A DNA stretch of 64,000 bases from Myxococcales bacterium (GTDB lineage: Bacteria > Myxococcota_A > Polyangia > Polyangiales > DASUME01). The notes beneath the pieces were generated by a model. It was not told the DNA's origin and ran no database searches. It worked only from the letters and a program-made list of their open reading frames with translations. The stretch covers positions 6,976,001 through 7,040,000 of the forward strand of contig JASGJH010000001.1 of assembly GCA_047601445.1 (NCBI GenBank). The letters are read 5' to 3'. This document shows, piece by piece, positions 26,173 to 61,803 of this stretch. Both the position numbers and the translations under genes were made by a program. Each line of letters starts with the position of its first letter. Positions within the stretch are counted from its first letter, which is position 1.

Positions 26173-35304
<9,132 letters not shown>

Positions 35305-45001: not shown

Positions 45002-46071
45002 CAGAAGCGCCCGCTGACTTGGGCTCCCACGGAGCCTTGGAAGAGCCATGGGGACAGGTTCGCGCGTGCGCGTTGCTCGGCTTCCTTGGAGCCCTTGAGT
45101 CGCCACCACAAGAACGTCGCGAGCCCGCCCGCCGCGAGCGCACCGCCCACCGAGACGAGGATCGTGGCGTTGCGCGCGTAGTCTCGGGCTTCCAGGCGGT
45201 CGGCCCGGCCGTCGGGAGTGCACTGGTTGCCCACGCAATTGACGTCGGACACGTGATTGGAGTGCACGGCGCGCAACGTGTAAAGAAAGCTCGCGCTGAG
45301 CGCCACGCCGCCCGCGCTCATCGCGCTGATGGCGACCCATTCCACCGGCGAGCGGGCGGCCGGGCCGTGTTCCGAGCGGCTCATTTCGGGCACACGAGCC
45401 ACGCTGACCTTGGGTGCCTTGCGTGGTGTCGAGCTTGGCGGGGCAGGGCTCGCGGCTTGGGGAGCGGCTTCGGGCGGGAGCGCGGGGATACTCACGAGCT
45501 GGCTGTCGCCCTGCCCCGAGAGCACGAGCTGCGTGGTCCATTCTTGTTTGCCGACGGCTTTGGCGCGCAACCTGTGGGCACCGCCGTCCAAGTAGAGGCG
45601 CTTGCCCAACTGGCCTTGTTCCAGAGGCAGGTCATCGAGTTCCACGAGGACCTGGCTATCGCTGGGCGCGGACACGATGACACTCGATACGCGAGCCTCG
45701 AGGTCGGCCTCCTTCTGCGCGGCAGCCGCCTCGCGGTCGCGGCGCCCCTCCGCGGCTGCGCGGGCTTTGACCTCGCGATACGTGGAGAGCGCGCTCGCGA
45801 GCCTACCGGCGCGCTCGTAGCAGACGGCCAAGGCGAGGAGACATCCCGTCGCAGGCTCGAGCCGAAAGCTCTCTGAGAAGAGCGGACAGGCACGCTCGTA
45901 GTCTTCCTGTGCGAGTCGATCCTTACCACTCTGAAAGAGCTGCTCCGCGGTCGGGTCTTCGGCACGCGCGCGCCGCGGGCGTGCCGTGATCGTGACGATC
46001 AGCGTGAGCAGACACAGCACCATCATTACGAAGAGGTGCCAGCGCGGCATCGCTCGCGTGCTCCGGATCAT
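45001..46071 (-). CDS. TPR + PEGA-like exported protein
   Basis: AEQLFQSG...ACPLFSES.RLEP..G.LL.LA.CYE..G.LASA TPR, a beta-sandwich segment and a hydrophobic C-terminus ending GRF. Confidence 0.85.
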   Translation of the reverse strand: MIRSTRAMPRWHLFVMMVLCLLTLIVTITARPRRARAEDPTAEQLFQSGKDRLAQEDYERACPLFSESFRLEPATGCLLALAVCYERAGRLASALSTYREVKARAAAEGRRDREAAAAQKEADLEARVSSVIVSAPSDSQVLVELDDLPLEQGQLGKRLYLDGGAHRLRAKAVGKQEWTTQLVLSGQGDSQLVSIPALPPEAAPQAASPAPPSSTPRKAPKVSVARVPEMSRSEHGPAARSPVEWVAISAMSAGGVALSASFLYTLRAVHSNHVSDVNCVGNQCTPDGRADRLEARDYARNATILVSVGGALAAGGLATFLWWRLKGSKEAEQRARANLSPWLFQGSVGAQVSGRF

Positions 46072-47789
46072 TCGCGTGTCTCGAAAAGGTTCGCGCCGAC
46101 GTCGCTCGCGGGGGGAGTGACCTCGGGTTGGGAAGACCGCGTTGCTTCGGGAGGGTCCGCTTCGCCGGACAGCGCCGCAGCATGAGCTCGGCGGTGCCGA
46201 CGCGGGGCCTCGTCGAGTCCGCTGGAGTGTTCGTCCAGCGCGGGTACTTCCTGGCGTCGATGATGCTTGGGTGGAGGAAGAGCGGAATCTGGTGGAGGCG
46301 CGTTCGCCACCGTGCCGACCGGGAGCTGCGCCAGCGCGGGTACGACTTTTGGCTCGGCCGTGGGCAGTTCCTTGGCGACCGCACCAATCGCTGCGGCAGG
46401 CTGTGCCTGGGCGACCACCGGCAATGCGGAGAGAGTTGGCTCGACGGGACGCGCGCTGAAGCCTCGCACGGCGAGTCCGCCCAGTACACCGAGCGTCACG
46501 GCCGAAACCAGCAGCCACTTGGAGTCTCGCTTGACCTCGGCGGCCCGCCCCGGTGCCAGGCTCGGAATCGGCTCACTGCGGAGCGGCTGATAGGCCCGCG
46601 CTGCCTGCGTCGCGGCGAGCTTGAGGGGCGGAGGCGTGGAGGGCTGGGCCTGCGCGGTGACGTTGTGTTCGACGGCGGCCTGGCTGACCTTGGGGCCGCT
46701 GCCCACCTCGACAGCCGCGGACTCCAGCTCCGCGGTAGTCCCATCGTCTTCGCGAAGCGCTGCGTGCTCCGCGGTCGGTTCGTCCGCGAGCTCCTCGACC
46801 CAACTCGCTTCCGCCGCTGCGACCTTCTCCGGCGGCACCGGCTTCGGGCGCTCCGACTCGGGATTCCGTTCACGTGGCGCGCGCGCCGCGGTCAGCGCGA
46901 ACGCCGCCAGTGGATTTCCTTTGGGTGGCGTCGACTCATGCTTGGCTTCGAGTGCCTCGTGGGTGACGTGCGCTGCGTCTTGTTCGAGTTTGCGGCCGAG
47001 CCAGGAGCGCAGCCGCTGGGCACGCTTGGAGGCCGCTTCGAGCCCTTGTTGACGTTGCCGAGCCTCTCCTTCTCGGACCACGCGCTCCTGCGCGACTCGC
47101 CACGGGCGATACCTGCGGGCGAGCTCACGAACGGACTCGACGCGTCCGTCGAGCACGCCCAGGTTGATGTCCGCCGGATTCTCGGCCCAGTGGTTGCGCA
47201 GCCACCAGCAATTGCTGCTGGCATCGTGCCAAATCAGATGGCCATCCTTGAGCACCTGGAAGGGCGTCGCGATCGCTCCACGAAAGCTGTAGCGCTCCTG
47301 GCCGCTTGCCCCCGTCCTCCACAGGGCAGGCGTGGCGAAGTCGGAGACCACGACGTCGTTGACGAGGTACGCATCACGCTCGGAGCAAGGCGAGCAGACC
47401 TCGATGATGAAGTCCACCAGCCCTTGATCGGAGCGAGGAGAATAGGCCGAGATGGTCCGTTGTCCGAATGGATTGACCAGCAGCTCGAGGCAAACTCGGC
47501 TCACCGCCAGCGACCAATCTGGTTTGAGTTCTACCTGGGCGTATGGCTGACCGTTCTCATCGAGGTGGATGCCTGCCCCATGTCCGAGCGAGGCTTGGGT
47601 GATCAGCACGGGCCAGTAGCCCACGGGCACGTCGTCGAGGCGCGGAAACGGGTCGACGGTGGCGCTGAGGGACCAAAGCGGCGCCAGGTCTCGGACCACC
47701 TGCTTCTGTATCGCCGCACTCACCCGTGCAAGATCCGATAAGTCTACGCCGTCCGCTTCGGGCACCAGGGCGATGTGTTGGGTGTTCAT
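46068..47789 (-). CDS. Hypothetical membrane protein: conserved-looking N-terminal domain, acidic linker, TM, Pro-rich tail
   Basis: RVSAAIQKQV.RDLAP.W...G.H...QPYA...EVC.P...VVSDF.TP domain, then TM WLLVSAVTLGVLGGLAV. Confidence 0.8.
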   Translation of the reverse strand: MNTQHIALVPEADGVDLSDLARVSAAIQKQVVRDLAPLWSLSATVDPFPRLDDVPVGYWPVLITQASLGHGAGIHLDENGQPYAQVELKPDWSLAVSRVCLELLVNPFGQRTISAYSPRSDQGLVDFIIEVCSPCSERDAYLVNDVVVSDFATPALWRTGASGQERYSFRGAIATPFQVLKDGHLIWHDASSNCWWLRNHWAENPADINLGVLDGRVESVRELARRYRPWRVAQERVVREGEARQRQQGLEAASKRAQRLRSWLGRKLEQDAAHVTHEALEAKHESTPPKGNPLAAFALTAARAPRERNPESERPKPVPPEKVAAAEASWVEELADEPTAEHAALREDDGTTAELESAAVEVGSGPKVSQAAVEHNVTAQAQPSTPPPLKLAATQAARAYQPLRSEPIPSLAPGRAAEVKRDSKWLLVSAVTLGVLGGLAVRGFSARPVEPTLSALPVVAQAQPAAAIGAVAKELPTAEPKVVPALAQLPVGTVANAPPPDSALPPPKHHRRQEVPALDEHSSGLDEAPRRHRRAHAAALSGEADPPEATRSSQPEVTPPASDVGANLFETRE

Positions 47790-47818: not shown

Positions 47819-47834
47819 AGCACGGGACATGCCA
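47819..47834 (-). promoter_or_regulatory. Putative sigma-54 promoter of the 47789-44006 operon
   Basis: Minus strand reads TGGCATGTCCCGTGCT, about 30 bp upstream of the ATG. GAGG RBS present. Confidence 0.65.
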
Positions 47835-47986
47835 GATGGGGCTCTCTGCGGATGCATGTTGCGCCGCAATCTCACGCTGATTTTTCCCGTTCACGATCCT
47901 CTCCCATCGGCTCGTCTCCTTCATCCCGTGACGGCCCCTAGGCTCCCCACGTCCGGCCCTGGCACCCAGGCCCGGTCCCGGGGACC

Positions 47987-48958
47987 TCAGCGCACACAGC
48001 GGACTCGATGCACGCTGTCGGCCGCGAACCAGGCGTCTGATCCATGTCCAAAGTCCACCGCCCAATGGAAATCGGTGAAGCGCGCCAGCGACGTCGCAGA
48101 CCAGTAGTAAGCTGACGGTTCACCCGCGAAAGCTTCCTGGTCGAGGGCCGGGCCGGCACGCGTCTCGTCTACCAGCGAATGCAGCTCCTTGAGCGTGGGC
48201 AGTCGCCAGAGCTCCTCCGCAGTAGCCAGACCCATGCAGTACGCCTCTGCGCCCGCAGCGTCGTAGGTGGAGTCGGGAGACTTCGTCTGCCAGACCAGGC
48301 GTGTTCCCGCATCACGAACGCCGTTCGATAGGGCCTTGAAGGGCGACCCTTGCGCTTGTGAGCCCCCGCGCACGCAGCGAACCGGGTGGAGTTCATCGAT
48401 GGACACCGGAAGTACGTTCGTGCCCGAGAATCCAAAGTCCACCAGCCAGGCTGTGCCTGCACGACCTGCCAGGGGCGACGCGGACCAGTAGCGGTCTGCG
48501 ACGAAGCCAGGGAACGCCTCGAGCTCGTCGCTCTCGCTGTTCTGATCGAGAGCTAGCAACGACACGAGCTCGATGCGTGCAGGGAGCCGAAACCCTCCGC
48601 CATCCACGGTGAGCGCCGCACAATAGGTCTCCGCATCCAGCCAGCTGCGTGGCGTGGAATCGGTGCCGGCTTGCCACTCGAGCTTGGTCACGTCGTCCCG
48701 GACGACGCCCTCCACCGGGCTGCTATAGGCACGTGGGTAGGAGCCCTCCGGGGTGCCGTCCGGCATGGGCCAGCGCGCCCAGGCGTAGGGCGAGGGCTGG
48801 AGTGCGAGCCCGCCGTCGGCGCTGGGGCCCTCGGCGGTCGCATGAATCAGCACGCCGGCTTCATGCTCGGGTGGATCCGGCAAGTCGATGCCGAGCATCG
48901 CGCTGCACGCGCTGGAGGCGAGCGAGATCAGCGTGATCGGGCCCCGTGCAGCACGCAT
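47987..48958 (-). CDS. DUF1566 lipoprotein with two domains (paralog of 44006-45001)
   Basis: SSAC lipobox, VRDDVTKLEWQ, FRLPARIEL, WRLPTLKEL and VRCVR twice. Confidence 0.9.
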   Translation of the reverse strand: MRAARGPITLISLASSACSAMLGIDLPDPPEHEAGVLIHATAEGPSADGGLALQPSPYAWARWPMPDGTPEGSYPRAYSSPVEGVVRDDVTKLEWQAGTDSTPRSWLDAETYCAALTVDGGGFRLPARIELVSLLALDQNSESDELEAFPGFVADRYWSASPLAGRAGTAWLVDFGFSGTNVLPVSIDELHPVRCVRGGSQAQGSPFKALSNGVRDAGTRLVWQTKSPDSTYDAAGAEAYCMGLATAEELWRLPTLKELHSLVDETRAGPALDQEAFAGEPSAYYWSATSLARFTDFHWAVDFGHGSDAWFAADSVHRVRCVR

Positions 48959-48977: not shown

Positions 48978-51900
48978 CTACTCGAGGTTTTCACATTTGT
49001 CATAGGCGGGCTGCGGCTGCTTGCCGACCAGGGCGTCGCGCGAGAGGCCATCGAGATAGAGAAACACGGCAAAGCCGGCGTTCATCGCGCCGCGCAGGGT
49101 CCAGGTCTCGAAGTCGTCTTGCTTGATTCGGTTCTCCTCGGTGAGCCAGGTGCTGGGACAAATGGGCAGCGGGTTGTCGGGAGAGCGTGCGGCTTGCACT
49201 TCTTCCACGCGCGGCACGTTCTTGGGATCGGTCGGCCACATCACGCACCATGGACCCAAATTGCCAGTGGCCACACCGGTCACGCTGTTCGCGCTCACGA
49301 TGCCGCGCTCGTCGCCGACCAAGGCGTACGCGGGGTACGTTTCCGGGCGGTACCACGACGATCGTGCGTCCAGGTTGGACGGCGCGCTCTTGATCTTGAA
49401 ATCGCCATTGTCGTAGTAGATTGCGCGCACCGGCGGTCGAGTGCCCCAGGCGCACAGCTTTTGCCAGACTTCGGCGTCTGCGTTCGTCCCGATCAGTGCC
49501 GAGCCCGTGTAGTCCGTGCGCCCGCTCTGCACGTTGAAGATGGGCGCGCTGTTCAGGTTGTAGCCCAACGACTGCCCGCACAGGCTCTGCGCGATGGCCA
49601 ACATGTTGGCGGAGCCTGCCTTGGCCGGATAGTCACGCGACACCCCGAGCACGCTCACTGCGCCCACTACGTCGAGGATCGCGTTGGGGATCTGGCGCTG
49701 CGTGCCTCCGAGGCCCATCCAGGCCACGTAGCGGGCGGTCCAGTCGTCGTAGGTCAGACCCTCGGTGAGATACTTGGACAACCCGAACACGCGCTTGCGG
49801 TTTTCGCCGGGTGCCGAGGAAGGGCCGAGGATGCCCTCCTTGAAGTTGGCCACGCGGGCTTCGCCTCCGGTGAGCGACATCAAGGTGTCGGCCTGGCGCC
49901 CTCGCGAGTCGTACTTGGCGCCGTGGCAGTTGACGCAAATCTCATTGAAGACCATGGCGCCAGGGGACTGGTAGTACAGCGGATCGGTGGGCCTCGGAGT
50001 GGGGGTCTTCTTGTCGAACCACCACGGGCGCGTCTCGGGTGTCAGCGACGAGACGCGAGGGATGTCCTGATAGGTGCAGTCGTCCTTGGGCTGCCAGAGC
50101 CCGAACGGCACGGGGGTGGTCGCGAACGCGCGGAAGCCGTTGGTCAGGCGCGCCTGCTTGAGCATGCTCACCACCTTCTTCTGCTGCGGATCCGAGCCGA
50201 CTTCGCCGTCCACCAACACCGAGGCCCAATCCGTGCGCCGCGGATACCACTCGCCTGGCGTCTCGGTAATGTCCGTTAGCACCCAGTGCGCGTGATCGGG
50301 CACGCCGTCGTTCTTGAGGGAGGCGAACAGGCCGTCGACGCTCTGGTCGGAGTCGAGCTCCGCCTGCTTGCTCATGGAGGGCAGAGAGGAGTGATCGCCC
50401 GGCGTGAGCTGAGTACCGCCGACGTTCGGATCCAGGATATCGCTGGTATCGGGGCAATACTTGGTCGCGCGATCGGGGGACAGGAACAACAAGCTCAGCT
50501 CTGGGTTCTGCACCGCGAAGGTCTGGCGGTCACCCGGCGCGGTCTTGTCGATGCCGACTGCACCGCCCACGTGATAGGCAGTCAATCGTTGATCGGCGCC
50601 CGCGAGGGCATCCTGATAGCCGGGATCGCCAGGCTTGACCTCGGAATACAGCGTTTGACCTTCGGCGAGTCCGCCGGTGGACCAGTCCATTTTGAAGCAG
50701 ATCCCCGTGCAGCCCTCCGCGTCGTTCATGCGCGCCGGAATGCTGATCATCCAGTTGCCGAAGATCTCGGGCACACGGCAGTCGAAGCCCACCGAGTTCA
50801 TCGGCATGTGCGGGAACAACGCGTAGTCCTCTGCATAGGTGAAAGGACTCTCCACGTTGCGATAGATCAGGCTGCGCCAGGGCGCGACCATGTAGTAGCC
50901 ATTGAAGGCCCCGTTGCTGCCCGGGTAGCCCATCCACTTCTGCGCGTAAATCGAGCTGTTCGGCTGCTCCTCGTCGAACAGCCAGGGCACGATGTACGGA
51001 ATCTGCGATTCCTGCTTCTCGCCGCGCTTGATGCGCGGGCTCGTGCGCTCCAGAGGGAACTGGAAGACACCGCCGCTCTGTTCGTTCGGAAAGAAATCGA
51101 GTAAGTCCTTCAGCTCCGGGTTCTGCGTGGTGGGAAAGCCACGGGGGTTGTGGCAATGGGCGCAGTTCCCAAGCATGTAGCCCTGGGCCTTGAGCTCGTG
51201 GTCGTTGCGCGGCGGGCGCGCGCCCTGGGATTGTTCGAGCGTCTTGACCTCGTCAGGGCTCGAAAGGCCAGTGATGGTACCGTATTCGATCAGACGCTCG
51301 AGTTGCTCGAGCTCGTCTTCGCTGGTGTCCTCGTAGGTCCCGCCTTCGCCAGTAGCGCGCCGACGCATTTGCAGCGGTGTGAGCCCGAGCAGGAAGCTTC
51401 GGTTGTGGCTGCCCATGTGGCACTGGATACAGCGCTCGCGGCCGGGGATCGCGTAGTTCCGCATGGCGCCTGCTCTGAACAGCGCTGCCACTCTGTTGGA
51501 GGGCTCCTTGGCCACCACCTCGGCGGCTTTGACCTCGTTGGACACGTAGCTCAGCATGACGTCGCGAAACGGCTTGCCGTCGCGTAGCGCCCCCGTGACC
51601 AAGATGGCCTCGGTCTCCTCTTCGTTCCACGCATAGGTTCCGAATAGGGAGCGCGTCTCGTGGGACCCGTCCGGCTCGTCGGGCCCATCGGCGCGCACTA
51701 CGATCAGGCGGGTCTCGATCTTCTTGTAGCGCGCGTTTCCGTTCGCATCGATGACCTCTTTCATGAAGGTCTTGTACACGCGCGTGTTATCCGGGACGTC
51801 GAACTCCTGGGTCTTGGCGTCGAACGCCAGGGACTCGCCGCGCGGCAAGCGCAGATGGCGCATCTTGCGTGCGTTGTCCGAGAAGAGCGGGTAAGCGGGC

Positions 51901-52715
51901 GCGTACGAAAGCACGCCCTGGTGCGCCAGGACCTCGGAGTCGTAGCTGACGAGGTCCGTCTGATCCAAGCGACTGGGAAGCGCCGTGGCGGATGCGAAGA
52001 AGGCATCCTTGGCGTCCATGGAGCTCTCGTCGGTGGCCAGCATGGCCCGGTTCGGGAGGCAGCTGCCGATGTTGGTGAGGCTCTGGGCCACGCTCTTGCG
52101 GAGCACGTAGGTATTCGCGGGGCCTGTCGTGCTGTCGTCTCCCACGTACAAGAGATCACCGGGCGAACCGGCCTTGAACCACAGCTCGAGCAGTTGCGCG
52201 AGCTCGACCAAGGGGTCGGTCTCCGCACGTTCGGACCAGGGCTTGGCGTTCGACTGTCCTGGCGGCGGCATGTACTTGTTGGGATCCTCGGAGCGGATGC
52301 GCTCGAGGATGAGGGCCTGGCGTGAGCTGGTCGCCTCGGCGAACTCGCCTACGTCCTTGACCTGAAAATCTCCGCGGATGGTCTCCACGTGGCAGGCACC
52401 ACAAGCACCCTTGAAGAGGCCGAACAAGTTGCTCGTGAGCACCGCGCGCTGGCCGGGCTTGAGGTTCAGCACACTCACCACGTCGCGCGCAGGGACAGGC
52501 TCGGCGGACTGCACGCTGGCGCACTTGGCGACCTCGGGTCCGGGATCGGGGACCTCGGACTCGCCGTCATCCTCTCCGCCGACGCCGGCATCGAACACGC
52601 ATAGCTTGGCGTGCGCAGCGGGACGCTCGCGCGAACAACCCGCGGTCCCGGCCAGGCTCCACGAGAGCAAGAGCATCAGCGACACACGACGGAAGAGCAT
52701 TCGTGACATGACCAT
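48978..52715 (-). CDS. Large multiheme c-type cytochrome lipoprotein (4 CxxCH, SO2930-like diheme core)
   Basis: TAGC lipobox. CGACH (52389-52403), CIQCH (51417-51431), CAHCH (51150-51164) and CVNCH (49923-49937). PLFSD.A.K.R, KTF, IETRL and Y.WN...TEA motifs. Start approximate. Confidence 0.85.
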   Translation of the reverse strand: MVMSRMLFRRVSLMLLLSWSLAGTAGCSRERPAAHAKLCVFDAGVGGEDDGESEVPDPGPEVAKCASVQSAEPVPARDVVSVLNLKPGQRAVLTSNLFGLFKGACGACHVETIRGDFQVKDVGEFAEATSSRQALILERIRSEDPNKYMPPPGQSNAKPWSERAETDPLVELAQLLELWFKAGSPGDLLYVGDDSTTGPANTYVLRKSVAQSLTNIGSCLPNRAMLATDESSMDAKDAFFASATALPSRLDQTDLVSYDSEVLAHQGVLSYAPAYPLFSDNARKMRHLRLPRGESLAFDAKTQEFDVPDNTRVYKTFMKEVIDANGNARYKKIETRLIVVRADGPDEPDGSHETRSLFGTYAWNEEETEAILVTGALRDGKPFRDVMLSYVSNEVKAAEVVAKEPSNRVAALFRAGAMRNYAIPGRERCIQCHMGSHNRSFLLGLTPLQMRRRATGEGGTYEDTSEDELEQLERLIEYGTITGLSSPDEVKTLEQSQGARPPRNDHELKAQGYMLGNCAHCHNPRGFPTTQNPELKDLLDFFPNEQSGGVFQFPLERTSPRIKRGEKQESQIPYIVPWLFDEEQPNSSIYAQKWMGYPGSNGAFNGYYMVAPWRSLIYRNVESPFTYAEDYALFPHMPMNSVGFDCRVPEIFGNWMISIPARMNDAEGCTGICFKMDWSTGGLAEGQTLYSEVKPGDPGYQDALAGADQRLTAYHVGGAVGIDKTAPGDRQTFAVQNPELSLLFLSPDRATKYCPDTSDILDPNVGGTQLTPGDHSSLPSMSKQAELDSDQSVDGLFASLKNDGVPDHAHWVLTDITETPGEWYPRRTDWASVLVDGEVGSDPQQKKVVSMLKQARLTNGFRAFATTPVPFGLWQPKDDCTYQDIPRVSSLTPETRPWWFDKKTPTPRPTDPLYYQSPGAMVFNEICVNCHGAKYDSRGRQADTLMSLTGGEARVANFKEGILGPSSAPGENRKRVFGLSKYLTEGLTYDDWTARYVAWMGLGGTQRQIPNAILDVVGAVSVLGVSRDYPAKAGSANMLAIAQSLCGQSLGYNLNSAPIFNVQSGRTDYTGSALIGTNADAEVWQKLCAWGTRPPVRAIYYDNGDFKIKSAPSNLDARSSWYRPETYPAYALVGDERGIVSANSVTGVATGNLGPWCVMWPTDPKNVPRVEEVQAARSPDNPLPICPSTWLTEENRIKQDDFETWTLRGAMNAGFAVFLYLDGLSRDALVGKQPQPAYDKCENLE

Positions 52716-52807: not shown

Positions 52808-54706
52808 CTACTTTGCGAAGTAAGTGGCGTTGTCGAGCGAGATCTTGGGCGCGCTCGGGCTGTTGGCGTCGTTGCTGCAAGTCACGGCGTAGGGATCGAC
52901 GCCGGGCGCCAGTGCCAAGAAGCCGCGCTTCTCCACGGCCGCGTTCGCACGATCGGGACGACGCGAGTCCGTGTAGATGGCCTTCACGAGGTTCCACTGG
53001 GCATCGACCTGCTGCTGGGGCGTGATGGTCCCGGAGAGGGGGGCTCCCTGGTACGTGTACACGCTGGAGCTGCCGGTGCGGGATTCCGCGGACTCACCGA
53101 GGCTGTTGAAGCCCTTGAGGCTGCTCACGAACACGTAGCGCGAGAGGGCGTAGCTGCGGTCGCGGATCGTGGCGTAGTCGCTGGCGATGGGATCGTTGTT
53201 GAGGCTGAACACGCGCGGCTGGGTGACGCCCGCGGCAACCGTGTCCTTGTACACGGGCAACGCGCCGAAGCCGATGCTGTTGAGGTCGTTGGGTACGGCC
53301 GTGGTCAAGCACGCGACCTGCAGGTCCGAGGCAAGGGTCTGCGTGCAGCGCGTGGTGAACGGACGATTGCCCACGTTGGAGAGGCCGCGGTTGGTGGTGG
53401 CCAGGCGATAGAACGCGAGGGCCGGCGCGGTGGCGCTCGGCTTGATGTTGCCCGTGGCCGGATCGCGCAGAAACAGGTTGTGAACGCGCGGATCCTGCCG
53501 GCGGAACGCGGCGGGGACGCCGACGTTGCAGCAGCGCGACGCGGTGGGCAGGCCGTTGAAGGCGGTGTTGGTCTTGGCGCCCCACGCGATGGGCGTGTTG
53601 TCGCGGGTGCCGTCATCGCCGTTGAGCACGCCAAAGGCGGGCGCTGTAGAGGCCTGCGGAACCTGGCAGCCCGAGCCGAACTTCACGTTCCAGTTGAAGC
53701 GACGAGCTTCGGGAGAGTTCGGGTTCTCGAAGTGTGCGGGGACGGGGTAGCGGCAGTCGCAGCGCGTGAGATTGGAGAGCGTCGCGGGAGCTCCCGCGGC
53801 CAGGCCCGCGTATGCCGAGGCGGGCACGCCGAGGCTGGCCGACGAGGGGTCGATGGAGCTCGGACCGCCAGAGCACGCTTGGCCCTGGGCACCGGAGAAC
53901 TTTCCGAACGCAGCCGTGGAGGTACCGTTGGCGCCCGTGTAGAGATCGGGCAGGTTGTTGGAGAAGGTGGGCACCACGATGGGCAGCACCAGACCGAGCG
54001 TGCCGTCGGCCTCGGCGACCTGGTCGTTGGCGTCGGCGTAGCGACGGATCGGGTCGAGATCCTGGGCGTCGGTGCCGTTGCACCACTTCTGGTTGGTGCC
54101 GGGAATGCCTAGCAGGGCGATGAAGAGCTTGGCCGTCGCGCTCGCTTCACCGCGGCGATAGATGTGGCGGATCTGGGTGTTGGCGGGGACGCTCGAGCTG
54201 GCGAACAGGCTGCCGTAGTCAGCCGCCAAAGCGCGGCGCGCAGCGCTGTTGCAGTCCTGAGTTTGGTCGCGCAGATCATAGCCCGCGTAGAGCAGCGAGA
54301 GCGCGTTCTGCCAGGTGCCGTAGTTCGTGCCGATGGTGGGGTTGCCCTCCGGGAAGCGGTTCGGATGACCCACGTTCAAAATGCCATCGATGGCGAGCAC
54401 GATGTCTTGGGCATTGGGGTAGGTGCCGCACAGGCTGTCGCCGAGCTGCGCTGTGAAGAAGGCGATCACCTGGTTGCTGGTGGTGCTCTTCAAGGCCGTC
54501 TCGCCCGGGGTCTGACCGCCGCCCGCGTAGTCGAGGAACGAGCCGAGGTCCGCGTTGGCCGACAGCGCCGGATCCGCGAGGAACGCGGGCCGCACGACGG
54601 GCTCCCACGAGTCCGAGCCGGCCAGCCTGAGGAGCTGCGCGTCGGCCGCGAGCGGCACCGCGCTCAGCGCGGTCACCACGGAGATGAGTGATAGTCCTTT
54701 GTTCAT
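52808..54706 (-). CDS. Secreted PstS-like (type II periplasmic-binding fold) protein with large insertions
   Basis: Signal peptide, then L.LAGSDS, GGG..PGE.AL, LAIDGI, YRRGEASAT, SIGF and Y.LSRYVFV in the order expected for the PstS-like fold. No ABC permease nearby. Confidence 0.7.
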   Translation of the reverse strand: MNKGLSLISVVTALSAVPLAADAQLLRLAGSDSWEPVVRPAFLADPALSANADLGSFLDYAGGGQTPGETALKSTTSNQVIAFFTAQLGDSLCGTYPNAQDIVLAIDGILNVGHPNRFPEGNPTIGTNYGTWQNALSLLYAGYDLRDQTQDCNSAARRALAADYGSLFASSSVPANTQIRHIYRRGEASATAKLFIALLGIPGTNQKWCNGTDAQDLDPIRRYADANDQVAEADGTLGLVLPIVVPTFSNNLPDLYTGANGTSTAAFGKFSGAQGQACSGGPSSIDPSSASLGVPASAYAGLAAGAPATLSNLTRCDCRYPVPAHFENPNSPEARRFNWNVKFGSGCQVPQASTAPAFGVLNGDDGTRDNTPIAWGAKTNTAFNGLPTASRCCNVGVPAAFRRQDPRVHNLFLRDPATGNIKPSATAPALAFYRLATTNRGLSNVGNRPFTTRCTQTLASDLQVACLTTAVPNDLNSIGFGALPVYKDTVAAGVTQPRVFSLNNDPIASDYATIRDRSYALSRYVFVSSLKGFNSLGESAESRTGSSSVYTYQGAPLSGTITPQQQVDAQWNLVKAIYTDSRRPDRANAAVEKRGFLALAPGVDPYAVTCSNDANSPSAPKISLDNATYFAK

Positions 54707-54755
54707 TGCATTCCTACTCTCTGTTGAGACGTTTCCTTCGGATTGAACTCAGCGC

Positions 54756-55724
54756 CTACGGCGTCGCCACGAGCGGTGCGCGTCGCAGGCGACGAAGCGT
54801 GAACACCAGCAGCAAGAGCGCGCCGAGCCCGCCCACCGCGAGCCAGCGTGTGAGCGGCTGCTCGCCCAGCTCGTACAGGGCGCGTTGCCAGGGCGAGCTA
54901 ACCTCGGCGGTGACGCGCGCCATGACCTCGACTGCGTCTGGCTTCATGGAGCTATGCCGAGCACGCTCGACGATCTGCGCCGCCCCCGCATAGTCCTGCT
55001 CCTGCATGGCCAGCGTCCACTCGTAGCCGAGGGTCTTGGCCTGGTTGGGGGCCGTGCCGCGCAGCGTTTCGAGGCAAGCACGCAGGCGCCCCGTATCGCG
55101 CACGCGAACGCCGACGTCGCAACGCAGCTGCGCCACGAGCGTCGGATCCACCTTCGCCTGCTCGAGATGCTTCAGCACCGCATCGAGGTCGTTCAGGCGC
55201 GAGGTCGGCACGGCTCCCGGCTGAACCAACGCCAGGCGCACGTAGCGCATGTAGTCGTCCACCACCACGCCGGGCTTGGTCAAGGCCATGGCGCAGGCCG
55301 AAAGACCGCGCGCCTTGTCGTCGCCCTCTTCGTAGGCCTGGCAGAGCTTCGAGAAGCCTGCCGCGACGCCAGGGACCGCCAGTGTGATCGCACGCAGATA
55401 CTTGGCGGCTTGCGCATGATCTCCGCGTTGACTCGCGCGGTCGGAGCGCTCTGCAAGTTCCATCAGATAGTTCGCGAAATCGATCGGGGCCGCGTTGCGC
55501 TCGGCCTCGCTCGGCACGGCGATCTCGGCCGCGCCGTCGTCGATGGGGAAACCGGTCACGAACAGCGAGTCGCCCATCCGCCGGGCCTCTTCGGGAGACT
55601 CCGTGGGCAGGATCTGGGCGTTTTGGGCGCCCGACGAACTCGCTGACCACGCCTGGCAGAGCACGAGTAGCGGCAACAGAAGAGACCGCCAACGACGAAC
55701 ATCGATCGAACTGCGCTTGAACAT
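54756..55724 (-). CDS. Exported TPR-like helical protein with C-terminal membrane anchor
   Basis: Signal peptide, helical repeats with Cys and a C-terminal TM followed by RRLRR. Confidence 0.75.
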   Translation of the reverse strand: MFKRSSIDVRRWRSLLLPLLVLCQAWSASSSGAQNAQILPTESPEEARRMGDSLFVTGFPIDDGAAEIAVPSEAERNAAPIDFANYLMELAERSDRASQRGDHAQAAKYLRAITLAVPGVAAGFSKLCQAYEEGDDKARGLSACAMALTKPGVVVDDYMRYVRLALVQPGAVPTSRLNDLDAVLKHLEQAKVDPTLVAQLRCDVGVRVRDTGRLRACLETLRGTAPNQAKTLGYEWTLAMQEQDYAGAAQIVERARHSSMKPDAVEVMARVTAEVSSPWQRALYELGEQPLTRWLAVGGLGALLLLVFTLRRLRRAPLVATP

Positions 55725-55740
55725 CGTGACATCACCTCAT

Positions 55741-56508
55741 TCAGAAGAAGCACTGCGTGGGGCAGAAGATTCCATCACCTTCGATCACCATCTCGGCGAG
55801 CCCGATCGGGTAGGTCGGATCCAAAAAGCGGTTCTGCACTTCTTTGATGCCGTCCATTTCGGCCTCCGAGGCCGCGGTGATCTCGCGCACACAGGCGCCA
55901 GCCGCGTCTGCGAGCGGTGTCGTCAAGCACGTGGTGGACTCCACGCCGGGGCCGCAGAGGCAATCGGTGAGGTACACCGTTCCGCTCTCGTCGGGTTTGG
56001 TGCATCCAGTGCGCCAAATGCACTTGAGCAGGTCAGTGCAGAGCACCGAGCGCTTGCGCCCGGCTCCGATGCCCATTTCAGCCTTGCCTTCCATGGCGAG
56101 GCACGCCGCGCGCGCGTGATAGTAGGCGCTCTCGGGATTGATCGTCTCTTCGCAGGACGCGCACTCGAGGGGATCGCCGAACGGTCCCTTGGTGGGGTCG
56201 TTCCCTGCGTCCGATCCGGCGTCGTCCTCGGACTGCGACGCGTCGATAGCAGAAAGCCACGATCCACCGGTGCCGCCGTCGAAGAACTCGTCGGAGACCA
56301 CGTCGGCATCCACCTCGGGGCTGGCGGCATCGCCCGCATCCGGCTTGCCCGCGTCCAGTCCGCCCGCATCGCTCGGCGGGAAGACACAGAGGGCTTGATT
56401 CGGACCTGCCATGGGTTCTGCACCACAGCCCAGGGCGAGCAGAGCCAGCCCGCTGCCGAGGCGCGCGACGCGAAGCGTGAAGAGGTGCCGGTTTCCATGA
56501 AGGGTCAT
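55741..56508 (-). CDS. Lipoprotein with a 12-Cys C-terminal domain (paralog of the upstream gene)
   Basis: ALGC lipobox, DAG-rich linker and C..CE...C...GC...DC.CG.GVE.TTC...G.C...NRF.DPTY.IG.A. Confidence 0.8.
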   Translation of the reverse strand: MTLHGNRHLFTLRVARLGSGLALLALGCGAEPMAGPNQALCVFPPSDAGGLDAGKPDAGDAASPEVDADVVSDEFFDGGTGGSWLSAIDASQSEDDAGSDAGNDPTKGPFGDPLECASCEETINPESAYYHARAACLAMEGKAEMGIGAGRKRSVLCTDLLKCIWRTGCTKPDESGTVYLTDCLCGPGVESTTCLTTPLADAAGACVREITAASEAEMDGIKEVQNRFLDPTYPIGLAEMVIEGDGIFCPTQCFF

Positions 56509-56538
56509 CGGGAACAGAGGTGCCAAGCGGTGTTGGAG

Positions 56539-56610
56539 CTTCTCGCAAGGGGCCTTCCGGGGAAGGAAGGTCGCTCGCGAGAAGGCGCGACGCCATAGAT
56601 GACGTCGCGC
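56539..56610 (-). terminator. Two tandem stem-loops after the first operon gene
   Basis: GCGCGACG...CGTCGCGC (56585-56610) and CTTCTCGC...CCTTCC/GGAAGG...GCGAGAAG (56539-56584). No U-tract. Confidence 0.5.
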
Positions 56611-56621
56611 TCAGGTATCGC

Positions 56622-58016
56622 TCAGGGCGCCAAGCAGACGTCGACGCACGAGAACTGGTCGCAACCTTCGATCACGGAGTCCGCTGCGCCGATGGCGTAG
56701 GTCGGATCGGTGAAGCGGTTGTTGATGTCGGTGATGCTCTCGGACTCCGCACCCGCGGCGACCTGCTGCTTGCAGGGACCGGTGGCGGCGGCGTAGGTCG
56801 AGCCGAAGCAGGTGGTAGGTTCGACGCCGATGCCGCAGAAGCAGTCGGACACGAAGATGTTGCCGCCGTTGTCCGGCGCTGCGCAACCCGAGGTGTGCAC
56901 GCAATCCAGGATCGCCTTGAAGATCTCGGCGCGTGGCTTGCCCGAATAGGAGTTGCCCGCGATGGCCGTACCGGAGCCCGTGAGCGCGAGGCCAGCGGCG
57001 TAGCTGTCCGGGCAGCTGGGTTCGCCGTTGTGTTGCTGCGTTTCGCAGGCGGTGCAAGCGGCGAGCGGATCGGGCGGATTGCCGGTGGTGGTTCCAGTGG
57101 TGCCCGTCGTGGTGCCGGTGGTTCCGGTCGTGTCCGTCGTGGTTCCAGTGGTGCCCGTCGTGGTGCCGGTGGTTCCGGTCGTGTCCGTCGTGGTTCCAGT
57201 GGTGCCCGTCGTGGTGCCGGTGGTTCCGGTGGTCGTTCCGGTGGTTCCAGTGGTCGTTCCGGTGGTTCCAGTGGTCGTTCCGGTGGTTCCGCCCGCCGTG
57301 GTCACCGTAATGGTGAAGGGATAGGGGTCGCTCGTCGTGTCGCCGTCCGACACCACCAAGGTCACCGTCGTGGTCCCGGTGGCCGTGCCCGTGAAGGTCG
57401 CGGTCGGGTAGCCCGTGGTCACATCGCCGCCTGCGCTGGAGGTCCAGGTGTAGGTCAGCGCGCCGGGCTGGTTGTCGGGATCGTTCGCGGTGGCGACTAG
57501 CTGTGTGGTGCCGCCGAGGACGACGCTCGGCTTCAACGTCACGATGGACGAGATGACCGGCGCCACGTTGGCGTCACCGTTGACCAGCAGGGAGCCGCCC
57601 GTCACCGCCGGACCGCGGAAGATCAGGTGTACCGAGACCGTGGTCTGGTTGCGTGCGGTGATGCTGAAGGTGGCCGTGCCGGCGCCCTTCGTGACCCCGT
57701 CGGTGGCCGTCGCCGTGAGGTTCAAGGTGTAGTTCTGGCCCGCCGGGATGGGGCTGATCACGTGGGAGAACGTGTTGCCCGTGCCGGCCACGGAAAACGT
57801 CCCGGTGAGCGGCGCGGCGAGGCCACCGCCGGTGATGGTATAGGCGACGCTGTCGACGGTGACGTTGCCCGTGACGAGCCGGAGCTCGGCGCCGCCCACC
57901 TCGTGCTGAGCCTGCTCGGCGCTTGCATCTTCGCTGCTGCAGCCAACCAGCCCGACGCTGCCGTACGCTGCGGCGAGCGAGAAGATGATTGCACTGCGGA
58001 TCGATCTATTCTTCAC
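56622..58016 (-). CDS. Surface lipoprotein: Ig/PKD-like domains, Thr-Gly linker, 12-Cys C-terminal domain
   Basis: AGGAGGA RBS before the GTG at 58016. LVGC lipobox. N.AP.I...A.A.DPD...LTYTW...VTL.VSDG Ig-like motif. Confidence 0.88.
57082..57290. repeat. Nested 51-bp and 21-bp tandem repeats encoding the GTT/GTTT linker
   Basis: The 51-bp unit GTGGTTCCAGTGGTGCCCGTC...GTGTCCGTC occurs almost three times, followed by three copies of GTGGTCGTTCCGGTGGTTCC(A). Confidence 0.92.
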
Positions 58017-58141: not shown

Positions 58142-58157
58142 CGCAACCTGTGTGCCA
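58142..58157 (-). promoter_or_regulatory. Sigma-54 (-24/-12) promoter of the surface-protein operon
   Basis: Minus strand reads TGGCACACAGGTTGCG, an exact TGGCAC-N5-TTGC consensus. Confidence 0.85.
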
Positions 58158-58438: not shown

Positions 58439-59570
58439 CTACTTGCCGTCTTCCTCTGCACTCGAACGACGAGTGGTGCCGGCAATTTCGCCCTGTTCGA
58501 TCAAGCGCGCGCGAACCACGTTGCGACTCAAGCCCAACAAGCGCGATGTCTGGAGCTGATTCCTTCCGCAGTACTCGTGGGCCACGCTCACCAAGCGACG
58601 CTCGATGTAGTGATGGAGGTGTTCGATGTTCTTCTCGAACAGACGGTGCAGGGCCTCTTCGAGCAGCGCGTCGGCGTCGTTGCGCTCGATGAGATTCCGA
58701 CCCCTGCGCAGCTTCCAGCGGCTTCACGCTGCGAGGCGGCGCGGCTCTCCTGAGGTTCAGTTGTGGCTCGTCGATGCTGTCTCCATCACGCACGAGGACC
58801 GCGTGATGGATGACGTTCTCGAGCTCGCGGATGTTGCCTGGCCAGCTGTGCTCCAGGAGCGCGCAGCAGGCCGCGGGAGCGAGCGTGAGTGGACCTGCAC
58901 CCACGGCTTCTCCATAGAGATTCAGAAAGTGTTCGGCCAGCGGGAGAATGTCCCGGGGACGCTCACGCAGGGGCGGAACCACGACGCTGGCGACGCTGAG
59001 TCGATAAAAGAGGTCCGAACGGAAGCGCCCCGCCGCCACGGCCTCTTCCAGGTTGACGTTGGTCGCCGTGATCAACCGGAAGTCCACCGCCACGGTGGTG
59101 CTCGATCCGAGCCGCACGATTTCGCGTTCCTGCAGCGCGCGCAGCAGCTTTACCTGCGCGGCCATGGAGAGGTCGCCCACTTCGTCGAGAAAGAGCGTCC
59201 CGCCGCGGGCGGCCTCGAACCAGCCCGTCTTGGCGCTCGTCGCGCCGGTGAAGGCCCCACGCTCGTGACCAAACAGCTCACTCTCCACCAGGGACTCGGT
59301 CAGCGCACCGCAGTTCACCGCTACGAAGGGGCCGCCGCTGCGGTTGCTCAGGCGATGGACGAGCCGCGCCGCCAGCTCCTTCCCGGTACCGGTCTCTCCA
59401 CACAGCATCACGCTGGCGTTGCTCGGCGCCACCAGCTCCAGGCGCCGCAGCAGCGCAGCCGATCGTTCGTCGGCAAACAGCAGGGCTCGCGCGCGTGCGT
59501 TTTCACCCGTGGCAGGAGCCGGGACGGTGCGGGTCTGAGGGTCCGCATCGTCGCGGAATTTGACGGGCAT
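58439..59570 (-). pseudogene. Sigma-54-dependent enhancer-binding protein, SfnR-like, with an apparent +1 frameshift at about 58701-58704 (possibly an assembly error)
   Basis: [31 protein letters not shown] and [10 protein letters not shown]. No N-terminal sensor domain. The [24 protein letters not shown]...K* lies in the shifted frame, with its stop at 58439-58441. Confidence 0.9.
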
Positions 59571-59612
59571 GAGAGTTCGCATTCCAGACGGGGCCGGCAC
59601 GGACGCGCGCTA

Positions 59613-59628
59613 TGCAAGAGCGGAACCA
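59613..59628 (-). promoter_or_regulatory. Putative sigma-54 promoter of the activator gene
   Basis: Minus strand reads TGGTTCCGCTCTTGCA (GG-N10-GC, TTGCA), about 45 bp upstream of the ATG. Confidence 0.6.
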
Positions 59629-59780
59629 TCGTCTGCTGTCAGGTGCTCGACCGTAGGAAAGGAGCAGAAACTTCGATCGAAAGGATCCGGTTGGAGAAGA
59701 CATGGGCCGTGCCGGGGCAAGGGCAGACCTCTTCGCTTGTGGACAGTCAAGGGAAGCCCGTGACGGGCCAGGGGGGGGCC

Positions 59781-60800
59781 CTAGCGCAGCTCACCTGGCC
59801 GCCCGTGCTCGACCACGGGGGAAGACGGCTGAATCAGGTTTTCGTTGCGCGTTCTAAATTCGCGTCTCTTGCCGAACTGCTGAATGAACTTGGCGCACTC
59901 ACGGACATCGTCTGCAGTCACGTGCGCTGCCCAGCCGACCAGCATGATCCACTCGAACAGGTAGATGTTCATGGCGTACTCGATGCCCAGGTGAAGCATC
60001 AAGATGGCGAGCAGGGCCAGGCGTCGTGTCTCCCGAAACCACACGAGCAACGGAGCCAGGATCTCGAGCAGCAATGAACCCCAGGTGGTCAGCCGGGAGA
60101 ACAGCAAGGACTCACGCAGGAAGTCCGGGATGGGCCCGTGCATCGCGAAGTCGTCGAGGTGGAGGATGAAGTACATCGCGGTCCCCTCGCGCCACATCGT
60201 TCCGCTCAGCTTCTCCACGCCAGCCGACCACAGCAGGGCAGCCATTTGAACCTGCACCAGACGCAAGCACCAGCCATCCACTTCCGTGGCCACTGCAAGG
60301 CCGCGCCTGCGCCGCACGAACGCGTCCAGGGACCAGACCTCCGACGAGCGCATGAAGATGGTCAAGAACAACAGAATACGGAAGATCTTGTCGCCTCCGT
60401 CGAGGATCATCGCGTTGCGAAAGTCGAAGCTCACTGCCCACACGAACACGCAGATCGCTTGCAGTCGAGTCGCCGCGCCCAGCGCCAGTAAGACTCCCTG
60501 TCCGAGCGCGATGGCCCAACACGTCCAAACCACGTTCGGCGTGCTCGGCAGCCAGTCCAGCAGACTCAAGGTCCCTGCGGGGGCAAACAGCTTGCGCTGG
60601 GTTAGCGGGAGCACTCCGCCGTCGGTCCACCACATGTCCACGTGGGGGATGGCGAGCAGAAGGTCGAGCACGAAGAGGCTAGCGAGAGCGATGCGATGAA
60701 AGGCGAGCCGGCGTGCGTCCACCGAGGCGTGTAGCCAGCGGTCGAGGGCCCTTCCGAGCTCCATCAGGGCCGGGAGATCGTCCTGTGCACGAGCGGTCAC
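59781..60800 (-). CDS. HTTM domain membrane protein
   Basis: LAFHRI, DGGVLP, RN..I.DGGD, WSLDA, RLVQVQ, AG.EKL.G..W..GTA, and H.GI...MNI..F...M. Confidence 0.9.
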   Translation of the reverse strand: MTARAQDDLPALMELGRALDRWLHASVDARRLAFHRIALASLFVLDLLLAIPHVDMWWTDGGVLPLTQRKLFAPAGTLSLLDWLPSTPNVVWTCWAIALGQGVLLALGAATRLQAICVFVWAVSFDFRNAMILDGGDKIFRILLFLTIFMRSSEVWSLDAFVRRRRGLAVATEVDGWCLRLVQVQMAALLWSAGVEKLSGTMWREGTAMYFILHLDDFAMHGPIPDFLRESLLFSRLTTWGSLLLEILAPLLVWFRETRRLALLAILMLHLGIEYAMNIYLFEWIMLVGWAAHVTADDVRECAKFIQQFGKRREFRTRNENLIQPSSPVVEHGRPGELR

Positions 60801-61399
60801 GGCAGGACCTCCACGTGAAAGAGATACTGATGAGGAAATACGGTTTGCCCGGGGATCGCGCGCCCGAAGTAGTTCGGTGCGCCCGGATTCGGGACGTCCC
60901 ACCAGTGACGGACCAGCTCCACCCGGGCCGGCACCAAACCCCGCTCGGGTCGTGCTAGCCGGGAGGCTGCGAAGCGAGCCAGCGCTGGCCACAACACACG
61001 CGAATCGTCGCGACGCAGCGCGTCCCACCACTTGGCGTGACGCCCCTGGAGGATTTCATCGCCCGCGCTTTGCTGCTCCCAGTCCGGACTCTTCCAGCTT
61101 CCGCTCTCGCCGTTGCGGAAGGTGACCTTGGCTTCGATCCAGGCGTTGGTGCGCTTGGGGTCGGGAGCAAAAAGCTTCCAGTCACCTTGCCAGAGTCCCA
61201 GTGGGTAGAGGACTTGGCCGCATAGCTGGCGCAAGCTCGTGCGCGCGGGGGAGTCACCGGGCAGAGCATCCTGCAGCAGCGCGCCCATGAGCAGCACGGC
61301 AAAGCCGTTGATTAGCCAACGCTCAAAGCGTGCCTTGGCGCCGCGCGCGAGCGAGAGATTCGCGAGTTCTGGGGTCGACACGCGCCCAGCGCTGAGCAA
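60797..61399 (-). CDS. HTTM-partner membrane-anchored protein (SdpA/DUF5819-like)
   Basis: N-terminal TM, LGLWQG.W.LFAPDP and R..KW. Its stop overlaps the HTTM start (GTGA). Confidence 0.75.
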   Translation of the reverse strand: MLSAGRVSTPELANLSLARGAKARFERWLINGFAVLLMGALLQDALPGDSPARTSLRQLCGQVLYPLGLWQGDWKLFAPDPKRTNAWIEAKVTFRNGESGSWKSPDWEQQSAGDEILQGRHAKWWDALRRDDSRVLWPALARFAASRLARPERGLVPARVELVRHWWDVPNPGAPNYFGRAIPGQTVFPHQYLFHVEVLP

Positions 61400-61467
61400 G
61401 CAACATGCCAGGAGTGGCTAAGAACACGGCCGAGGGGGGCTCCGCCGAGCCCGGCACGCCGCGGAAG

Positions 61468-61803
61468 TCAGGACCCATTCGAACAGGCGCCGCGGTCGGC
61501 CCCCAGGGGCGGGGAGCAGTAGCAATGATCGTCCACGACGCACTGGCAGCCCGCCTTGACGTCCTCCGTGCAATAGCCCTCGAGCCAGTCGACGCAGGCT
61601 GCAAGCGTGGTGAAGTGCGTGGGGGTGTCACGGGCCGCGAGCTCCTCGTCCGTGGGACACTCGCCGTCGGGGTTCCAATACTCCCCGTCGACGCAAGCCC
61701 AGACGGGCAACATGCGCTGATAGCGCTCGCAGGCGCTCGGAGGGTCGTCTCCGCCGCATCCGAGCAGGGTGGCGAGCAGTGTCCAACCAAGGGCGCGCTT
61801 CAT
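61468..61803 (-). CDS. Small Cys-rich lipoprotein
   Basis: MKR...LLGC lipobox followed by 10 more Cys in about 95 aa. GGAGG RBS. Confidence 0.75.
   Translation of the reverse strand: MKRALGWTLLATLLGCGGDDPPSACERYQRMLPVWACVDGEYWNPDGECPTDEELAARDTPTHFTTLAACVDWLEGYCTEDVKAGCQCVVDDHCYCSPPLGADRGACSNGS

Follow-up and report, generated by a model that had tools for sequence, protein, structure and literature searches.

Methionine-free proteins in a minus-strand gene cluster of a Myxococcales bacterium: a possible case of sulfur sparing in secreted proteins

A stretch of 64,000 nucleotides from a Myxococcales bacterium (GenBank assembly GCA_047601445.1), hereafter the window, comprises bases 6,976,001-7,040,000 of a genome assembled as a single contig of 9.50 Mb with 66.3% G+C, and contains a gene cluster, lying with its promoters on the minus strand, in which three genes encode proteins without any methionine (Met) after the initiator. 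These are a 632-amino-acid secreted protein (52808-54706) and a 464-amino-acid lipoprotein (56622-58016), both singled out in an earlier note on this DNA, and a 573-amino-acid protein with 4 cysteines (Cys; 46068-47789), which was absent from that note. Measured against its own family, the 632-residue protein has lost conserved Cys as well as Met, and a sulfur-richer paralogous cluster lies elsewhere in the same genome. We consider the best reading of these observations to be sulfur sparing, in which the lean copies would be made when sulfur is scarce, and, judging from sequence comparison, we lean slightly towards it being correct.

The residue counts on which the earlier note relied were borne out by translation. 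In the 632-residue protein Met occurs at position 1 only and there are 12 Cys, while the lipoprotein, which starts with a GTG codon behind a GGAGG ribosome-binding site, has no internal Met and 13 Cys, namely one in the lipobox, none from there to the C-terminal domain and 12 within that domain; 12 non-lipobox Cys are therefore kept in each of the two proteins, as had been said. The paralogue of the lipoprotein encoded within the window (55741-56508) has four Met in the shared domain, and a giant repeat protein (26476-35304, plus strand) is indeed Met-poor, with 14 Met in 2942 residues.

How unusual this is was judged against the whole genome, using gene calls from a simple codon-log-odds method that gave 7419 proteins and covered 86% of the genome, but is crude, with unreliable starts and a few split genes. 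Internal Met makes up 1.69% of residues genome-wide and Cys 1.28%. The earlier probability of a few in a million for zero Met in 631 residues proved overstated by two to three orders of magnitude: a plain binomial gives 2e-5, and with a beta-binomial fit to all proteins of the genome the figure becomes 9e-4, with 1.4e-3 for the 573-residue protein and 3.5e-3 for the 463 residues of the lipoprotein. Since the beta-binomial probability is of the order of 1e-3 per protein, a single Met-free protein is merely unusual. Nine of 2412 proteins of at least 400 residues are Met-free, where the beta-binomial expects 5.5, and at 500 residues or more there are three in 1447, two of them in the window. The real signal is the clustering, in that three of the nine fall within 7 consecutive genes (permutation p = 3e-4, 200,000 permutations). 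When Met was predicted by regression on the other 19 residues, 8.7, 7.5 and 7.7 Met were expected for the three proteins, which rank 4th, 12th and 10th in the genome for depletion. Met-free secreted proteins of such length are rare (3 of 698 secreted proteins of at least 400 residues), where the earlier note would have been refuted had they been common, and the secreted class is not Met-poor, with 1.77% Met in signal-peptide proteins and 1.73% in the rest.

Stronger evidence comes from comparison with relatives, first of all in the family of the 632-residue protein. A word-indexed search returned nine other homologues only; an exhaustive profile search returned 904 cluster representatives at E<=1e-3, and composition was counted after residue 30 in 137 representatives of 450-1100 residues out of 147 listed new hits. 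Beyond the signal peptide the four close homologues (62-75% identity) contain 0, 0, 0 and 1 Met, with 12 Cys each; for the five distant ones the counts range over 1-9 for internal Met and 15-23 for Cys and are lowest in a partial sequence. Among the 137 representatives the median Met count is 6 (minimum 1, none 0), the median Cys count 26 (minimum 16) and the median number of sulfur atoms 32 (minimum 18), against 12 in the clade of the window protein. This clade of five, with 0-1 Met and 12 Cys, is therefore at the family minimum for both residues.

The loss can be followed column by column in an alignment of 96 sequences. Two internal columns that hold Met in 73% and 91% of the 91 others read leucine and phenylalanine in all five clade members, and in 21 columns 60% or more of the others have Cys, of which 8 are still Cys in the clade and 13 have been replaced, the lost positions reading alanine, serine, valine, asparagine, threonine or glycine, or being deleted. 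Among the lost positions are the two flanking a motif that the earlier note had put forward as an example to be checked; here the others are Cys in 95-96% of cases and the window clade has alanine, an outcome in that note's favour. On the tree the lean clade is nested in the sulfur-rich family (Shimodaira-Hasegawa-like approximate likelihood-ratio test, SH-aLRT, 100) on a stem of 0.85 changes per column, and over a divergence of about 1 change per column within the clade one Met was gained. Relative to the 137 representatives the clade stands at the 0th percentile for Met and Cys, the 86th for tryptophan, the 99th for tyrosine and the 80th for phenylalanine, so that the depletion is specific to the sulfur residues. 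Two metagenome scans for contigs of the four close orthologues yielded no relative, a scan of a genome collection gave distant relatives only, and a close orthologue was present in none of 60 related genomes searched, 7 of which gave distant, partial matches.

The lipoprotein shows a similar loss in its N-domain. It consists of a Cys-free PKD-like N-terminal part, a linker of threonine/glycine repeats and the C-terminal domain with 12 Cys. Four Cys of the N-domain that are conserved in two paralogues are gone from this protein, and gone also from a Met-free sulfatase lipoprotein elsewhere in the genome, whereas all twelve Cys of the C-terminal domain are retained relative to the paralogues. 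Met numbers 1 to 4 in the C-domain of paralogues, the in-genome paralogues having 3 each; the C-domain homologues found comprise only an in-genome paralogue and one Met-rich metagenome protein, too few for statistics. The linker is encoded by a tandem DNA repeat (57085-57291) with a period of 21 to 51 and up to 10 copies.

In the 573-residue protein a conserved but unnamed N-domain is accompanied by one predicted membrane span and a tail rich in alanine and proline. The best 45 of its 73 homologues have a mean of 6.4 internal Met (range 1-16, none Met-free), and a Met belonging to a conserved motif of these homologues has become leucine in the window protein. By its predicted structure this N-domain (residues 1-235) matches an unnamed domain that occurs in fusions with phospholipase-D-like and phosphoesterase proteins as well. 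With the sulfur or Met minima of three unrelated families falling in one cluster, the pattern is hard to put down to family composition or to chance.

As regards identity, the 632-residue protein matches no Pfam or NCBIfam family, and a profile search of solved structures with its family found no match; the Pfam family PBP_like_2 matches 2 of 10 relatives weakly (best E 1.3e-4), the window protein not being one of them. An AlphaFold2 model built from the 96-sequence alignment reached a predicted local distance difference test score (pLDDT) of 82.1, where a model from 10 sequences (pLDDT 32.8) was unusable. Searched with Foldseek, the better model matched solved structures that were all PstS-type phosphate-binding proteins (15 of 15 at E<=1e-3, best E 6e-5), with template modelling (TM) scores that are low because of insertions. 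The protein is thus predicted to have the two-lobed type II binding-protein fold of the PstS type. The family consensus keeps the PstS-like motifs GSDT, GGGSG, APMSR and RRxDxSGTT, of which the serine/threonine loops and the RxDxSGTT residues are those we take to contact the ligand; the lean clade has GSDS, GGGQT, AFFT and RRGEASATA in their place. On several contigs of metagenome-assembled genomes from Polyangiales/Myxococcales the conserved partners of the binding protein are a big cytochrome, a homologue of the 273-residue protein of the window and lipoproteins with the Cys-rich domain.

A sulfur-richer paralogous cluster, for which the earlier note had suggested looking, was found at 2.56-2.60 Mb. 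It has two tandem binding proteins, a cytochrome, and paralogues of the 273-residue, 573-residue and lipoprotein genes, and at 2.57 Mb TPR and DUF1566 genes follow the 573-residue paralogue as they do in the window. The tandem PstS-fold genes (2596376-2600487) encode near-identical proteins of 644 residues, g2596376 and g2598553, with 8 Met and 24 Cys each and 25-28% identity to the lean protein, and one of them stands at the 100th percentile of codon adaptation index (CAI), a crude estimate taken against 37 ribosomal-cluster genes and no more than a proxy for abundance. Identity between window proteins and their paralogues in this cluster is low overall (25-48%), and the functional equivalence of lean and rich copies is a presumption. 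On the same CAI scale the giant repeat protein of the window, which has 328 Cys (11%) and takes 8th place in the genome for Met depletion, stands at the 95th percentile.

The same signature is seen where sulfur sparing would most be expected. Of the other Met-free proteins of at least 250 residues, 43 in number, 40 were scanned, and they include a sulfate-binding protein with a single Cys (Sbp; 507 bits), two proteins of the SsuA family encoded in an ssu island, a PKD-domain sulfatase and CysE; SsuE has 0 Met and 0 Cys, and proteins with less than 1% sulfur residues abound in the island at 7.434-7.464 Mb. By total Met plus Cys, Sbp and the sulfatase stand at the 0.2-0.3 percentile of the genome and the 573-residue protein at the 1.5th. 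By composition, then, the organism does spare sulfur in its sulfur-acquisition proteins. The Met-free sulfatase lipoprotein mentioned above (7526021-7530436) shares its N-terminal domains with the window lipoprotein, and the gene after it encodes a 767-residue protein with multihaem-cytochrome-like and TPR matches, a second pairing of lipoprotein and cytochrome that also lies behind a sigma-54-like site.

Sigma-54 promoters form a further link. The only exact match in the window to the consensus TGGCAC-N5-TTGC (58143-58157) is a predicted promoter 127 nucleotides upstream of the lipoprotein start, and a sigma-54-like site with 2 mismatches that keeps the GG and GC (47820-47834) lies 31 nucleotides before the 573-residue gene, whereas no such site was found upstream of the sulfur-rich copies even when two mismatches were allowed. 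Across the genome 174 genes have a site of at most one mismatch in front of them, and behind such sites sit three of the nine Met-free proteins of at least 400 residues, namely the window lipoprotein, the sulfatase lipoprotein and a DUF1254/DUF1214 protein with zero Met and zero Cys. A scan for terminators and sigma-70 promoters gave nothing exceeding shuffled sequences.

Upstream of the lipoprotein promoter, at 58439-59600, is a gene in two frames for a sigma-54 enhancer-binding protein without an N-terminal sensor (Pfam Sigma54_activat 5e-66, AAA_lid_14). The AAA+ and lid parts run from 59600 to about 58750, with AAA+ beginning near residue 44, and a Fis-type helix-turn-helix (HTH) is encoded in 58439-58723 in the other frame; the AAA+ frame is stop-free as far as the end of the lipoprotein gene, an open frame of 992 codons. 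Because the HTH is in another frame the gene as it stands is broken, being either a pseudogene or the product of an assembly or sequencing error. Its closest paralogue, g7407215, is colinear with it in two frames (62% identity in the AAA+ part, 53% in the HTH part) and adjoins SsuE (207 bits, cutoff 164) and an SsuA-family gene.

By inspecting low-sulfur genes we picked out a heptamer, TCACGGG or its complement CCCGTGA, that lies 78-103 bases upstream of the sigma-54 sites of a homocysteine synthase-MetA-CysE operon, an arylsulfatase, the sulfatase lipoprotein, the DUF1254 gene and the gene that runs divergently from the activator linked to SsuE. At the 573-residue gene the heptamer occurs at 47925-47931, at -97 from the sigma-54-like site. 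The homocysteine synthase-MetA-CysE operon (3960632-3963849) has a sigma-54-like site with the palindrome TCACGGG-CG-CCCGTGA at -87/-78, which suggests that this organism places sulfur assimilation under sigma-54. The heptamer is not enriched at -115 to -45 of sigma-54-like sites (17 of 886, against 14-16 in control windows) and is common in the window (16 occurrences, 12.4 expected); its link to sulfur is therefore weak, suggestive just through its position and the low-sulfur genes behind it, and at the 573-residue gene it is a lead only. When palindromes from the region upstream of the lipoprotein promoter were searched across the genome, no set of co-regulated genes emerged that was informative.

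We propose that the window carries the sulfur-lean copy of a module conserved in Polyangiales/Myxococcales-type bacteria, which would comprise a secreted protein of PstS fold, a c-type cytochrome lipoprotein of very large size, lipoproteins that carry a Cys-rich domain, and the 573-residue protein with TPR and DUF1566 genes. In this copy the binding protein and the first lipoprotein, the two predicted to be most expressed, and the 573-residue protein have lost all internal Met and such Cys as were dispensable. Under sulfur scarcity, activators of the SfnR type would switch on the sigma-54 promoters, and the lean proteins would then be made instead of, or beside, the sulfur-rich paralogues at 2.56-2.60 Mb. 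For each exported molecule of binding protein this would save about 20 sulfur atoms (13 against 33), and exported sulfur would be irrecoverable for the cell. Sulfur sparing, as first put forward in the earlier note, thus gains from the purge relative to the family, from the paralogous cluster and from the rarity of Met-free secreted proteins, and further from the signature shared with canonical sulfur-scavenging proteins and from the SsuE-linked paralogue of the activator; it loses from an absolute sulfur content that is not low and from neighbours that are sulfur-rich.

Several observations weigh against this proposal. Total Met plus Cys places the 632-residue protein at the 21st and the lipoprotein at the 53rd percentile of the genome, because their families are very Cys-rich, and the neighbours stand higher again (cytochrome 82nd, 255-residue lipoprotein 98th, 273-residue protein 78th). 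The 632-residue protein and the lipoprotein have the highest CAI of the cluster (91st and 78th percentile respectively, against 37th-64th for neighbours), so that a difference in abundance could explain why the neighbours stayed sulfur-rich; the 573-residue gene does not fit that account, since its CAI is at the 6th percentile and abundance-proportional selection should therefore be weak there. The cytochrome of the window is no leaner than its paralogue g2600960 (38% identity), with 26 Met and 22 Cys against 24 Met and 23 Cys. Scans of the cluster proteins with Pfam and NCBIfam found no known sulfur-metabolism gene. On the regulatory side, the activator carries a +1 frameshift between about 58662 and 58751, separating AAA+ from HTH, and the lipoprotein promoter has no TCACGGG at the usual place. 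In a related cluster of another genome (L005) activator genes are nearby and yet the binding proteins are very Cys-rich, so that sigma-54 control may go with the module and not with sulfur limitation. Finally, given the identity of 25-28% and the altered binding-site motifs of the lean clade, the lean and rich binding proteins may not be interchangeable.

The reading can be extended to a sigma-54 regulon for sulfur limitation, organised as a cascade, in which the SsuE-linked activator would recognise TCACGGG some 80-100 bases upstream of its promoters, the module of PstS-fold protein and giant cytochrome would serve the extracellular capture and redox processing of a sulfur oxyanion or an anion related to it, with the lean copy as the version made in starvation. 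We offer this only tentatively and think it rather unlikely to hold as a whole. As an observation in its own right, a weak sigma-54-like site with 2 mismatches (59614-59628, minus strand) lies 32 nucleotides before the likely ATG of the window activator at 59582, and TCACGGG occurs about 135 bases upstream of it (59757-59763, minus strand), which hints at a regulatory cascade, the match being weak and the motif common.

Of the alternatives to sulfur sparing, the one that survives best is chemical robustness, by which Met, being readily oxidised and beyond repair once outside the cell, would be selected against in an extracellular setting that is oxidising, or reactive towards thiols and thioethers, near a large haem protein. 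It would account for the full removal of Met alongside the 12 Cys kept in each protein, an even number, presumably joined in disulfides. It also has in its favour the cytochrome with four haem motifs encoded in the cluster and the giant Cys-rich repeat protein nearby, which is Met-poor (rank 8) though 11% Cys. However, it does not account for the 13 conserved Cys columns lost out of 21 or for the missing four N-domain Cys of the lipoprotein, oxidation-prone tryptophan and tyrosine (86th and 99th percentile) are not reduced, the cytochrome and two other secreted neighbours have normal Met, and ordinary sulfur-scavenging proteins bear the same signature. We regard it as improbable.

Slightly more doubtful again is the view that the pattern has no adaptive meaning, the three proteins being the tail of Met-poor secreted families in a GC-rich genome, grouped by function and history. 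Nine Met-free proteins of at least 400 residues were seen against 5.5 expected, the families are Met-poor to begin with (median 0.95% in the binding-protein family, 1.1% in the 573-residue family, 3 Met in each lipoprotein paralogue), and the finding was chosen after the fact. Against this view, the minima of three unrelated families coincide in one cluster (clustering p = 3e-4), zero Met has been held over about 1 change per column within the lean clade with a single gain, and Met and Cys conserved across the family are replaced in five of five clade members. A general economy of cost, in which exported proteins would be made from cheaper amino acids since the cell loses them, can draw on a report that in E. 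coli the sulfur content per residue is 46% lower for extracellular than for cytoplasmic proteins (PMC2932507); it is very improbable and was rejected, as the secreted proteins of this genome are not Met-poor as a class and the lean clade, rich in tryptophan, tyrosine and phenylalanine, is costlier in biosynthesis per residue than 93-98% of the 137 representatives.

The remaining genes place these proteins in their surroundings. Between 59600 and 44006, in the direction of the minus strand, the genes encode in turn the activator, 464-residue lipoprotein, 255-residue lipoprotein, 273-residue protein, 632-residue protein, 1240-residue cytochrome, Lcl_C/DUF1566 protein, 573-residue protein, TPR protein and second Lcl_C lipoprotein. 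The 255-residue lipoprotein (55741-56508), which is the paralogue of the C-terminal domain of the first, has 5 Met and 14 Cys in all, and the 273-residue protein (54756-55577), of no known family, has 6 Met, 4 Cys and homologues in related clusters. The cytochrome (48978-52700) is a c-type lipoprotein with 4 CxxCH motifs and partial similarity to dihaem cytochromes of the SO2930 family. It is followed by the 303-residue Lcl_C (DUF1566) protein (47987-48898) and, beyond the 573-residue gene, by the 349-residue TPR protein (45001-46050) and the 331-residue Lcl_C (DUF1566) lipoprotein (44006-45001). On the other side of the activator is a small operon (59781-61803, minus strand) for a 111-residue lipoprotein with 11 Cys, a DUF5819-like protein and a membrane protein of the HTTM/SdpB family, with a sigma-54-like site of 1 mismatch (61396-61410) 15 nucleotides before the DUF5819 gene.

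Sulfur sparing is a known phenomenon (PMC10551891, PMC2932507). Although the idea is accepted, few clear cases from nature exist. If it is the right explanation here, it would extend to secreted Cys-rich proteins, in which the purge has removed 13 of 21 conserved Cys positions and stopped at 12 presumably structural Cys per protein. It would also predict a growth condition, sulfur limitation, for a widespread myxobacterial module and point to a sigma-54 sulfur regulon in the group. Within the library searched, searches on sulfur starvation in myxobacteria and on sulfur-depleted isoforms listed no paper on such a case in this group. Should the regulon reading hold as well, the condition in which proteins of unknown function are made could be read from their elemental composition.

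Four known systems offer a comparison. With PstS and the DING phosphate-binding proteins the 632-residue protein shares its predicted fold; unlike them, it is about twice as long, has large insertions, and has no ABC permease or ATPase gene among the 14 neighbouring proteins scanned. The activator may be likened to SfnR, a sigma-54 activator under CysB control through which Pseudomonas putida uses dimethyl sulfone (Endoh 2003, 2005, cited in PMC8234197), in lacking an N-terminal sensor and in lying next to a sigma-54 promoter. The arrangement of g7407215 with SsuE resembles that described for SfnR in pseudomonads (PMC8234197). Unlike SfnR, the window activator carries a frameshift, and neither sulfonate or sulfone genes nor sfn or msu genes were found among its scanned neighbours.

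Enzymes of sulfur assimilation are described as low in sulfur, and yeast as sparing sulfur by switching isozymes (Baudouin-Cornu 2001; Fauchon 2002; cited in PMC10551891 and PMC2932507). The Sbp, SsuA-family proteins, SsuE, sulfatases and CysE of this genome are of that kind; the window proteins differ in that they are not sulfur-assimilation enzymes and that their absolute sulfur is average. The remaining system is the known case of an abundant protein that has a version stripped of Met and Cys and tied to sulfur scarcity (described in PMC2932507 and PMC10551891). The window proteins differ from that isoform in being secreted and Cys-rich, with 12 Cys kept in each of the two, in that only some genes of the cluster are lean, and in that lean and rich copies are 25-28% identical; they resemble it as versions depleted of Met and Cys that would likewise be linked to sulfur scarcity.

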